Assembly: GCF_003334305.1 (NCBI RefSeq)
Contig: NZ_QOWS01000005.1
DNA: 64,000 bases
DNA from: Escherichia coli
Lineage (GTDB): Bacteria > Pseudomonadota > Gammaproteobacteria > Enterobacterales > Enterobacteriaceae
Direction: 5' to 3' (one strand)
A program made the translations under genes and the position numbers. The notes beneath the pieces were generated by a model that had not been told where the DNA came from, made no database searches, and saw nothing but the letters and a program-made list of their open reading frames with translations. Shown piece by piece: positions 20,138 to 48,908 of the stretch (its first letter is position 1; each line of letters starts with the position of its first letter).

Positions 20138-21556
20138 ATGCATGTACACCCCATTTCAACTTTCCGTTTGTTCCAGGAAGGTCATCTGCTACGTAATAGC
20201 ATCGCTATTTTTGCGCTAACCACGCTGTTCTATTTTATTGGTGCAGAGTTACGGCTGGTTCACGAACTTTCTCTTTTCTGGCCGCTGAATGGCGTAATGG
20301 CGGGGGTGTTTGCCCGCTATGTCTGGCTTAATCGACTGCATTACTATGCGATCAGTTATGTGGCGATGCTGGTTTATGATGCCATAACCACCGAATGGGG
20401 ACTGGTTTCACTGGTTATCAATTTCTCCAATATGATGTTTATTGTTACCGTCGCCTTACTGGTCGTGCGGGATAAGCGTCTGGGGAAAAATAAGTATGAG
20501 CCAGTAAGTGCCTTACGGCTATTTAATTACTGTCTCATTGCCGCATTATTATGCGCTATTGTCGGGGCGATTGGTTCGGTCAGTATTGATAGTCTGGATT
20601 TCTGGCCTTTGCTTGCGGACTGGTTCAGTGAGCAATTCTCAACGGGCGTTTTGATCGTGCCTTGTATGCTGACGTTGGCTATTCCTGGAGTGCTGCCGCG
20701 CTTTAAAGCAGAACAGATGATGCCCGCCATCGCGCTTATTGTGTCGGTTATTGCCTCGGTAGTCATTGGCGGAGCGGGGAGTCTGGCGTTCCCGCTGCCT
20801 GCATTAATCTGGTGTGCAGTGCGCTATACGCCGCAGGTAACATGTCTGTTGACCTTTGTCACCGGTGCGGTGGAAATCGTACTGGTGGCAAATTCGGTGA
20901 TTGATATCTCGGTCGGTTCGCCGTTCTCCATTCCGGAAATGTTCTCCGCACGTCTCGGTATTGCCACGATGGCGATATGCCCAATTATGGTTTCTTTTAG
21001 CGTGGCAGCGATCAATTCGCTAATGAAGCAAGTTGCGCTGCGAGCCGACTTTGATTTTCTGACTCAGGTTTACTCACGGTCCGGTCTTTATGAGGCGCTG
21101 AAAAGTCCATCGCTGAAACAGACACAACATCTGACGGTCATGCTGCTTGATATTGACTATTTCAAAAGCATTAACGATAACTATGGACATGAATGTGGCG
21201 ATAAAGTGTTAAGCGTGTTTGCCCGGCATATTCAGAAGATTGTCGGTGATAAGGGGCTGGTGGCGCGCATGGGCGGCGAAGAATTTGCTGTTGCAGTGCC
21301 GTCGGTGAATCCTGTCGATGGTCTGCTAATGGCGGAAAAAATCCGTAAAGGCGTTGAACTGCAACCATTCACCTGGCAACAAAAAACGCTTTATCTCACG
21401 GTAAGTATTGGCGTCGGTAGTGGTCGCGCATCGTACCGAACGCTGACCGATGATTTTAATAAATTGATGGTCGAAGCCGATACGTGTCTGTATCGCTCGA
21501 AGAAAGATGGGCGCAACCGTACCAGCACTATGCGTTACGGTGAGGAAGTTGTCTGA
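20138..21556 (+). CDS. dgcF: Membrane-anchored diguanylate cyclase DgcF/YneF (472 aa)
   Basis: N-terminal multi-TM domain plus C-terminal GGDEF domain (RMGGEEF). Confidence 0.85.
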   Translation: MHVHPISTFRLFQEGHLLRNSIAIFALTTLFYFIGAELRLVHELSLFWPLNGVMAGVFARYVWLNRLHYYAISYVAMLVYDAITTEWGLVSLVINFSNMMFIVTVALLVVRDKRLGKNKYEPVSALRLFNYCLIAALLCAIVGAIGSVSIDSLDFWPLLADWFSEQFSTGVLIVPCMLTLAIPGVLPRFKAEQMMPAIALIVSVIASVVIGGAGSLAFPLPALIWCAVRYTPQVTCLLTFVTGAVEIVLVANSVIDISVGSPFSIPEMFSARLGIATMAICPIMVSFSVAAINSLMKQVALRADFDFLTQVYSRSGLYEALKSPSLKQTQHLTVMLLDIDYFKSINDNYGHECGDKVLSVFARHIQKIVGDKGLVARMGGEEFAVAVPSVNPVDGLLMAEKIRKGVELQPFTWQQKTLYLTVSIGVGSGRASYRTLTDDFNKLMVEADTCLYRSKKDGRNRTSTMRYGEEVV

Positions 21557-21782
21557 CATCTTTATTCATTCCGCGCGATTTGAATGCAATGTGTTCTACC
21601 ACTTTATGATCCAGGAAAAGGCGTATTTCCTCGATTAAACCATGATCCGCGCCACACTTTTCTCATAAAACTGCTCATTAATCATCAGGAGTTGATCAAA
21701 ACAGGGGTTCGGCGTATTAAAGTTTGCTAACCTGTCGTACCAATTCAAACAGGTTGTATGACTAATCAGAAGGGAACCCATT

Positions 21783-23234
21783 GTGAAAACACTAAATCGT
21801 CGCGATTTTCCCGGTGCACAGTATCCAGAACGTATCATTCAGTTTGGTGAAGGTAACTTCCTGCGCGCCTTTGTTGACTGGCAAATCGATCTCCTGAATG
21901 AGCACACCGATCTGAATTCTGGCGTGGTCGTTGTTCGTCCGATTGAAACTTCATTCCCACCGTCACTGAGCACGCAGGATGGTCTGTACACCACCATTAT
22001 CCGTGGCCTGAATGAGAAGGGGGAAGCGGTCAGCGACGCGCGTCTGATTCGCTCGGTTAATCGTGAAATCAGCGTCTACAGTGAATACGATGAATTCCTG
22101 AAACTGGCTCACAACCCGGAAATGCGCTTTGTTTTCTCTAATACCACCGAAGCGGGTATCAGCTACCATGCGGGCGATAAATTCGATGACGCGCCAGCGG
22201 TAAGTTATCCGGCAAAACTGACCCGTCTGCTGTTCGAACGTTTTAGCCATTTCAACGGTGCGCTGGATAAAGGTTGGATCATCATCCCGTGTGAGTTGAT
22301 CGACTACAATGGCGACGCGTTGCGTGAACTGGTGCTGCGCTATGCGCAAGAGTGGGCACTGCCAGAAGCATTTATTCAATGGCTGGATCAGGCTAACAGC
22401 TTCTGTTCTACGCTGGTGGACCGTATCGTTACCGGTTATCCGCGCGATGAAGTGGCTAAACTGGAAGAAGAGCTGGGTTATCACGATGGTTTTCTCGACA
22501 CCGCTGAACACTTTTACCTGTTTGTGATTCAGGGACCGAAATCCTTAGCGACTGAACTGCGTCTGGACAAATATCCGCTCAACGTGCTGATTGTTGACGA
22601 TATTAAACCGTACAAAGAACGCAAAGTGGCAATCCTCAACGGTGCGCACACCGCGCTGGTGCCGGTGGCGTTCCAGGCAGGGCTGGATACCGTAGGTGAA
22701 GCGATGAACGATGCTGAAATTTGCGCATTCGTTGAAAAAGCTATCTACGAAGAAATTATTCCGGTACTGGATTTGCCTCGTGATGAACTGGAATCTTTCG
22801 CCAGTGCAGTCACCGGGCGTTTCCGTAACCCGTACATTAAGCATCAGCTGCTGTCTATCGCGCTCAACGGTATGACCAAGTTCCGCACTCGCATCCTGCC
22901 GCAGCTGCTGGCAGGGCAGAAGGCAAAAGGCACACTTCCGGCGCGCCTTACTTTCGCATTAGCGGCATTGATTGCCTTCTATCGTGGTGAGCGTAACGGA
23001 GAAACATATCCGGTACAGGACGATGCACACTGGCTGGAACGTTATCAGCAACTCTGGAGCCAGCATCGTGACCGTGTTATCGGTACCCAGGAACTGGTAG
23101 CGATTGTGTTGGCAGAAAAAGACCACTGGGAGCAGGACCTGACGCAAGTGCCTGGTCTGGTCGAGCAGGTTGCTAATGACCTGGATGCGATTCTTGAAAA
23201 AGGGATGCGCGAAGCTGTACGTCCGTTGTGCTAA
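21783..23234 (+). CDS. uxaB: Altronate oxidoreductase UxaB (483 aa, GTG start)
   Basis: Translation [30 protein letters not shown]... matches the mannitol-dehydrogenase-family enzyme UxaB. Confidence 0.95.
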
Positions 23235-47993: not shown

Positions 47994-48908
47994 ATGGGTA
48001 AAACAATCAGTATAAAGGTCCTGTTCGGTATTTATCTTCTATTAATGGCAGGTAAAGTTTTTGCCTTCAGTTGTAATGTCGATGGCGGGTCAAGTATTGG
48101 AGCTGGTACAACCTCTGTTTATGTTAATCTCGACCCTGTAATACAGCCGGGCCAGAATCTGGTTGTAGACTTGTCTCAGCATATAAGTTGCTGGAATGAT
48201 TACGGCGGCTGGTACGACACTGATCATATAAACCTGGTACAAGGCTCAGCTTTCGCAGGCTCTCTACAGTCATATAAAGGATCGCTGTACTGGAATAATG
48301 TGACCTACCCCTTCCCGTTGACGACAAATACCAACGTATTGGATATTGGTGATAAGACACCGATGCCATTACCGTTAAAACTCTATATTACCCCAGTCGG
48401 GGCGGCCGGTGGAGTTGTCATAAAAGCCGGGGAAGTTATTGCCCGTATTCATATGTATAAAATTGCAACATTAGGAAGCGGAAATCCGCGTAATTTTACG
48501 TGGAATATTATTTCAAATAACAGTGTTGTTATGCCAACAGGCGGCTGCACTGTTGATAGTCGTAATGTCACCGTGGATCTCCCGGACTTTCCTGGAAGCG
48601 CAGAAATACCCCTTGGCGTATATTGCTCAAGCGAACAAAAGCTCTCATTTTATCTTTCGGGTGCCACCACTGACAGTGCCCGACAAGTGTTTGCTAACAC
48701 AGCACCTGATGCAACAAAAGCATCGGGAGTGGGTGTCTCTCTGATGCGTAATGGAAAAATACTGGCTACGGGAGAAAATGTCTCCCTGGGAACAGTAAAT
48801 AAAAGCAAAGTACCTCTGGGTTTAAGCGCAACCTATGGACAAACAGGAAACAAGGTTTCAGCCGGAACCGTCCAGTCAGTCATTGGTGTCACTTTTATCT
48901 ATGAATAA
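47994..48908 (+). CDS. ydeQ: Two-domain FimH-like tip adhesin (304 aa)
   Basis: Signal peptide, N-terminal lectin-like domain with Cys pair, C-terminal pilin domain; last gene of the operon. Confidence 0.8.

Follow-up and report, generated by a model that had tools for sequence, protein, structure and literature searches.

Two adjacent predicted ExuR boxes, rather than a 7-bp inverted repeat, at the uxaB promoter of Escherichia coli

Repression by ExuR and activation by CRP are textbook features of uxaB regulation in E. coli. The control region of the gene was reportedly sequenced in 1986, and sites for its regulators are said to have been predicted in 2000. Control by ExuR and CRP is already known, in other words, and is ordinary gene regulation. 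Operators recognised by repressors of the GntR/FadR family, to which ExuR belongs, are short dyads of the TnGT-N(0-3)-ACnA type.

We analysed a 64-kb stretch of E. coli DNA, referred to below in its entirety as the window, in which a first-pass annotation had drawn attention to a perfect 7-bp inverted repeat, AACCTGT-N13-ACAGGTT, as a candidate ExuR operator. Its description of the DNA was accurate: the repeat can be read directly, it ends 28 bp before the GTG start codon of uxaB (21783 minus 21755 = 28), and GTACCAATT is present within the spacer, at 21737-21745. The gene had also been named correctly, since the 483-aa open reading frame matches NF002969, the NCBIfam model for tagaturonate reductase, at 810 bits and is annotated as uxaB in E. 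coli by RefSeq. The anatomy of the site, as described below, differs from that proposed. The region from 21729 to 21767 is, on the basis of motif matches and conservation, probably the uxaB operator, and would consist of two adjacent ExuR boxes, the first of which lies over the -10 element and the transcription start. The operator is possibly shared with UxuR, the paralogue of ExuR.

Exu-type boxes near uxaB

The uxaC-exuT-exuR loci used for training came from E. coli K-12, Enterobacter, Klebsiella, another enterobacterium, Yersinia, Serratia, Pantoea and Brenneria. When the DNA upstream of uxaC-exuT and of exuR was aligned across 7-8 genera, there were only three invariant islands, in each case surrounded by diverged spacer (Table 1), and all three share a single 18-bp register, AAAkTkGTrTgAyAAnTT. 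These training sites were named ExuR boxes from their position and conservation. Using 19 distinct sites from uxaC, exuT and exuR, we constructed a weight matrix of 22 columns into which no uxaB sequence entered, and scanned both strands of the whole 64-kb window, i.e., ~128,000 positions. Four of the five best matches fell within 227 bp (21543-21769). By way of background, there were 16 matches of at least 10 bits in 465,000 positions of orthologous loci, a rate of ~3e-5 per position, and a control of 66 kb of unrelated K-12 DNA contained three matches of at least 9.6 bits. The top match in that control, at 15.0 bits, was AAAGTTTTGTAATCAGTT, near the dctA-pdeK spacer of E. coli K-12 (9605-9622 of the retrieved locus), which may be either a chance match or an unrecognised ExuR site. 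Within the window, a match of 11.5 bits at 6763 lies inside a PTS IIB/IIC coding gene and was taken as chance. At the UxuR-type palindromes of uxuA and uxuR the matrix gave no match of at least 8 bits, which argues that it is specific for exu-type boxes.

Table 1. Features of the dgcF-uxaB region, with the conserved islands from which the matrix was derived. Positions are those of the window unless a gene is named.
Feature	Position	Strand	Details
Far ExuR-like box	21545-21562	+	GAAGTTGTCTGACATCTT; 14.9 bits, rank 2; overlaps dgcF stop codon
Distal ExuR-like box	21588-21605	-	reads AAAGTGGTAGAACACATT; 11.7 bits, rank 3; ~140-150 bp upstream of transcription start
Invariant upstream block	21692-21711	+	TTGATCAAAACAGGGGTTCG; CRP/FNR-type half-site TTGAT near -41.5; overlaps KdgR-like box
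Putative extended -10 element	21725-21733	+	TGcTAACCT; hexamer TAACCT at 21728-21733
Inverted repeat	21729-21755		AACCTGT-N13-ACAGGTT; left arm 21729-21735, right arm 21749-21755
Spacer of inverted repeat	21736-21748		cgtaccaattcaa; 13 nt
ExuR box 1, main operator (predicted)	21729-21746	-	reads GAATTGGTACGACAGGTT; matrix 17.2 bits
uxaB transcription start	21739-21743	+	known to within ~4 nt
ExuR-like box 2, weaker	21750-21767	+	reads CAGGTTGTATGACTAATC, includes TGTATGAC; 10.2 bits, rank 5
uxaB CDS, tagaturonate reductase	21783-23234	+	GTG start, 483 aa
exuT island			AACTTGTCATACAACTT; adjoins CRP-like GTGA-N6-TCACA
uxaC island	-71 to -54 of uxaC		AAATTGGTGTGATAACTT
exuR island	upstream of exuR		AAGTGGTATAACAA

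The highest-scoring position in the window, rank 1 of the ~128,000, was a 22-column match on the minus strand at 21727-21748. Its 18-bp core, box 1, corresponds to the left arm of the reported repeat together with the spacer, and GTACCAATT is its most conserved half. The E. coli copy scores below the training sites, which range from 22 to 30 bits. To place it in context, uxaB loci were retrieved from 80 Enterobacteriaceae species. In the orthologues box 1 lies on the minus strand at -54 to -56, with a median score of 16.5 bits, and 74 of 81 sequences score 8 bits or more; it is absent in four loci of the Franconibacter/Siccibacter type. In most genera it reads AGATTGGTGTAATAACTT, identical at 16 of 18 positions to the E. 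coli uxaC box, and its conserved positions include TTGGT, at 21739-21743. Across six diverse E. coli strains the sole change in the proximal boxes is 21738 T>C, which gives motif position 9 the G of the uxaC box in place of A.

Box 2 overlaps the right arm of the repeat and lies in the uxaB 5' untranslated region. It has a 9-nt core, TTGTATGAC, in common with the conserved operator box of exuT. Its scores in the orthologues are modest, with a median of 7.3 bits and with 58 of 81 sequences reaching 6 bits or more, and it starts 21 bp after box 1 in 48 sequences and 20 bp after it in eight. The orthologous block, AGGyTGTATGACtAAT, is nearly invariant. In both boxes the conservation of each column correlated with the information content of the matrix (Spearman coefficients 0.54 and 0.69). 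In box 2, positions that depart from the consensus are also invariant, so that the invariance goes beyond what the ExuR motif needs. Because the matrix score is modest and yet these non-consensus positions do not vary, the pattern suggests an additional or different constraint on box 2, e.g., a role of the 5' untranslated region.

As a check on its proposal, the first-pass annotation had called for a motif scan, and the answer depended on the motif used. The published UxuR box consensus is AAATTGGTATACCAATTT (PMC8092373). Counting matches to it gave 13/18 at 21588 and 12/18 at 21729 (right half 8/9, left half 4/9), favouring the distal site, whereas the ExuR-type matrix placed the proximal box first. 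Consensus counting was dropped, as it under-rated the proximal site, favoured the distal one and missed box 2 (9/18, by hand count).

The promoter and its likely regulators

The experimentally determined -10 region of uxaB is printed as AAGTTTG CTAACCT GT.. (Supplementary Table S3, PMC4447067), and an experimentally validated transcription start is given as 1608744 in U00096.2 coordinates (PMC4447067). The latter is 40 nt upstream of the start codon, at 21743 of the window, and the -20..+1 string in Table S3 of the same paper ends at 21739/21740. In the 81 sequences T25, G26, T28, A29, A30 and T33 (within 21725-21733) are at least 90% conserved and positions 27, 31 and 32 vary; judged from the alignment, this is the signature of an extended -10 element. 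A generic sigma-70 and terminator scan of 21500-21850 found nothing, because a promoter with a weak -10 (TAACCT) preceded by TG, and lacking a -35 hexamer, falls outside the rules of the scan. TATTAA or TAAAGT, in combination with TTGATC, had been considered as the promoter; these were dropped, since the published -10 differs and the hexamers are not conserved at a workable spacing. There was no mention of uxaB in the supplements of Mendoza-Vargas 2009, and a full-text literature search for operator sequences and start coordinates yielded nothing useful.

Box 1 overlaps both the published -10 hexamer and the transcription start of this hexuronate-catabolism gene, spanning ~-11 to +7, and box 2 spans ~+8 to +28. 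ExuR is a hexuronate repressor of the GntR/FadR family, and the two 18-bp boxes (AAAkTkGTrTgAyAAnTT) would face each other, with their starts 21 bp apart, or approximately two helical turns. Because box 1 covers the -10 element and the start, occlusion of RNA polymerase is a likely mechanism: a repressor on box 1, the binding of which we infer from the motif, would cover the -10 hexamer and the start and so exclude the polymerase. Box 2 could add cooperative binding or a roadblock. Once the repressor had been released by a hexuronate-derived inducer, the CRP/FNR-type site near -41.5 would be needed for transcription from what we propose is a CRP-dependent promoter without a -35 hexamer. Derepression of uxaB has been described both on glucuronate and in a uxuR deletion strain (PMC10016265).

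In most genera the homology upstream of uxaB begins exactly at 21692, and the conserved DNA consists of three blocks, i.e., TTGATCAAAACAGGG, ..TAAGTTATTrsACCAAT.. and the box 2 block described above. The candidate CRP/FNR-type site, at 21692-21705, has an invariant, perfect TTGAT half (21692-21696) and a poor second half; its centre (for a site of 14-16 bp) is at 21698.5, corresponding to -41.5 if the start is at 21740. CRP and ExuR are the known uxaB regulators listed by Myers et al., who describe at this gene an FNR ChIP-seq peak with a weak motif, the FNR site overlapping the CRP site. The reported centre of the FNR peak maps to ~21713-21737. ChIP signals for sigma-S RNA polymerase and for ArcA have been described at the uxaB promoter (~21640-21790; PMC4447067, PMC3798270), and uxaB expression was not rpoS-dependent by qRT-PCR. 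At uxaC/exuT there is an FNR ChIP peak with a strong motif (PMC3688515). A CRP-like site, GGTGA-N6-TCACA, abuts the exuT ExuR box in 7/7 aligned genera (~6953-6974 of the retrieved K-12 locus).

The same upstream DNA contains a KdgR-like box, which in the retrieved loci lies at roughly -85 to -70 relative to the uxaB start codon. The KdgR pattern, rrAACA-NN-GTTTyA, was taken from the E. coli kdgK, kdgT and kduI promoters, and approximately half of the 81 orthologous sequences fit it exactly at ~-35, e.g., AAAACAGGGTTTCA, which is one spacer base from the KdgR box of E. coli kdgT (AAAACAGCGTTTCA). The E. coli copy at 21697-21713 (AAAACAGGGGTTCG) does not fit, its degenerate right half matching at 4 of 6 positions. 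These alignments suggest that uxaB may be under KdgR control in those genera in which the box is intact. A match to the pattern at 48847, inside the ydeQ coding gene, was taken as chance.

The protein acting in vivo might mainly be UxuR, or a UxuR-ExuR heterodimer, rather than an ExuR homodimer. We regard this only as a tentative alternative, one that sequence alone does not separate from action by ExuR. The gene is derepressed in the uxuR deletion strain (PMC10016265), UxuR and ExuR reportedly bind interchangeably to one another's sites (PMC11806353), and one half of box 1 (TACCAATT) is an exact match to the published UxuR box. Against this, the exu-type matrix, to which the uxaB boxes conform, gives no match of at least 8 bits at uxuA or uxuR, so that the two types of site are distinguishable, and it is ExuR, not UxuR, that is listed as a regulator of uxaB (Myers et al.).

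It is unlikely, in our view, that box 1 is the only ExuR site and that conservation at 21751-21766 reflects either another protein or a function of the 5' untranslated region in translation, stability or pairing with small RNAs. Such an explanation would account for box 2 being more invariant than box 1 despite its median of 7.3 bits, even where it reads GACTAAT as against GACAAGT, and it would fit the location of box 2, which lies past the transcription start, beside the ribosome-binding site. However, box 2 shares TTGTATGAC with the exuT box, ranks fifth among the matches and is held in a fixed register of 20-21 bp with box 1, and the leader has no match to an Rfam family and an ordinary predicted fold. 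We favour the reading in which both boxes belong to the operator.

The inverted repeat and the upstream boxes

A 7-bp repeat is by itself statistically unremarkable. When spacers of 0-20 nt are allowed, perfect 7-bp inverted repeats number 205 in the window, against ~95 expected from first-order Markov simulations, and among simulated versions of the 226-bp dgcF-uxaB spacer ~25% have one or more. The complementarity of the arms stops at 7 bp. In 77 orthologous sequences the homologous arms are complementary at 7/7 positions in just three, and typically at 2-3 of 7; the commonest pairs are AAGTTAT/TCAGGCT (2 of 7) and AACCTAT/TCAGGTT (5 of 7), and there were no compensatory changes among the 77. 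The best-conserved bases, ACCAAT, are inside the so-called spacer and not in the arms, and the right arm shows poor conservation at its first two bases. Conservation across the Enterobacteriaceae, which had been suggested as a further check, therefore goes against the repeat and in favour of box 1.

Taken together, the alignments and the matrix indicate that the repeat is no recognition unit of its own but arises from two pseudo-palindromic boxes lying side by side. It exists because the half-sites of the boxes resemble AAsTTGT and ACAAsTT. Each box can be read as a 17-mer, the pseudo-palindrome AAsTTGT-N3-ACAAsTT. The outer half of box 1 (AACCTGT) would then complement, by chance, the ACAGGTT that overlaps the start of box 2: the latter opens with AGGTTGT, and when the two bases before it are included the sequence is ACAGGTTGT, in which ACAGGTT occurs. 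Thus, the place and the regulator originally proposed held up, this being the top match in the window of a matrix built without uxaB, and the identification of the repeat itself with the operator did not, given its unconserved arms.

For the repeat to be the operator, a single repressor dimer would have to reach over the 13-bp spacer and contact both 7-bp arms. In E. coli the arms are indeed a perfect complement of each other, and they resemble ExuR half-sites (AACCTGT compared with AACTTGT, and ACAGGTT with ACAAGTT). We nevertheless consider this very improbable, because the left arm changes to AAGTTAT in other sequences while the right arm remains yCAGGyT, without compensation, and because half-sites in the training boxes are ~3 nt apart, as against 13 nt between the arms; the near absence of complementary arms in the orthologues, and the position of the conserved bases, have the same implication. 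That the repeat forms an RNA hairpin controlling translation or termination in the uxaB leader can be dismissed almost entirely: both arms do pair in the minimum-free-energy fold of 21722-21790, but that fold is energetically unexceptional (z-score -0.94, with 35 of 200 shuffled sequences equalling or exceeding its stability), the left arm precedes the reported start and would not be transcribed from the uxaB promoter, and the arms show neither covariation in the 77 sequences nor a match in Rfam.

The gene upstream of uxaB is dgcF, encoding a diguanylate cyclase, which ends at 21556 (stop codon TGA, 21554-21556). The window is E. coli chromosomal DNA, the segment 21400-22000 being matched in 5413 of 5426 complete genomes. 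Two further ExuR-like boxes, the distal and the far box (Table 1), are confined to Escherichia and precede the uxaB start by ~140-190 bp. The distal box scores 17.8 and 22.9 bits in two other Escherichia species in which the surrounding spacer has diverged. In six E. coli strains it contains no variable sites, and the 42 flanking nucleotides hold 17 plus one indel; from this pattern the distal box looks to be under constraint. The far box scores 12.5-15.5 bits in other Escherichia species, where the 6 nt after the dgcF stop codon retain the tail of the motif (CATCTT, CAGGTT or CAAGTT) and the DNA beyond diverges.

In other genera (Citrobacter, Enterobacter, Klebsiella and others) the gene upstream of uxaB is not dgcF and encodes instead a 175-aa acetyltransferase of the GNAT family. 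By sensitive blastn and MAFFT, at the nucleotide level, 21606-21680 aligns with the 3' end of the Citrobacter GNAT-family gene, and the distal box corresponds to the codons for ELFYHN in that gene (GAGTTGTTCTACCACAAT); a tblastn search for a remnant of the acetyltransferase in E. coli gave nothing convincing. Judged by the alignment, 21606-21680 looks like a relic left behind when dgcF replaced the GNAT-family gene in Escherichia, and 21588-21605 appears to be derived from the coding sequence of the lost gene. Whether Escherichia has thereby acquired a second, upstream pair of functional ExuR boxes, which would cooperate with the proximal pair to tighten repression, e.g., by looping, is doubtful, and we raise it only as a conjecture. 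If true, it would exemplify, on a small scale, the origin of an operator from the remains of a coding sequence.

Several observations were made on the genes themselves. The dgcF open reading frame is full length here (472 aa, 20138-21556); it has only 315 aa in K-12 MG1655, and strain EC600 carries it as an annotated pseudogene, incomplete at the N terminus. In E. coli K-12 AB1157 (NZ_CP076404.1) only 42 of 601 query bases across the dgcF-uxaB junction match, which suggests a deletion or insertion in the uxaB promoter region of that laboratory strain. In Yersinia enterocolitica (2501-6410 of the retrieved locus) and Pantoea (2501-6416), a uxaB-like gene of 483 aa with mannitol dehydrogenase domains is located between uxaC and uxaA, in one operon. 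A uxaB gene that stands alone, under a promoter and operator of its own, therefore seems characteristic of the Enterobacteriaceae.

Comparison with known operators

The significance of these results is small beyond accurate annotation. They correct the anatomy of the site, in that recognition is predicted to involve two 18-bp boxes, one of which overlies the -10 element and the start, instead of the 7-bp repeat. For genome scans in general, they illustrate that a short inverted repeat close to a promoter can simply result from pseudo-palindromic sites that lie next to each other. The boxes specific to Escherichia, and the KdgR-like box found elsewhere, are minor leads for the hexuronate and pectin regulons.

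With regard to the upstream boxes only, there is an analogy with the auxiliary operators of the lac and gal systems, in that extra copies of the box lie 140-190 bp from the proximal pair. The cases differ in that the distal boxes at uxaB are confined to Escherichia, and for ExuR looping or tetramers would be analogy only. The geometry of the proximal boxes is that of the GntR/FadR family: read as a 17-mer, box 1 is AACCTGT-CGT-ACCAATT, with three central bases, like the exuT box AAGTTGT-ATG-ACAAGTT, and the 13-nt spacer of the reported repeat does not fit this arrangement. The likeness to the UxuR box (PMC8092373) is restricted to one side. The AAATTGGT / ACCAATTT half is common to uxaB box 1, and GTACCAATT matches one half of the UxuR box at 8 of 9 positions, whereas the other half of box 1 matches at 4 of 9 in the even-palindrome register.

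The closest counterparts are the ExuR boxes of exuT, uxaCA and exuR in Enterobacterales, which have the same 18-bp register as the uxaB boxes. The resemblance to exuT extends to a putative CRP/FNR-type site just upstream. The arrangement is different, however: the exuT and uxaC boxes are single, one per promoter and ~180 bp apart, whereas uxaB has two predicted facing boxes ~21 bp apart, and this pair covers the -10 element, the transcription start and the early leader.
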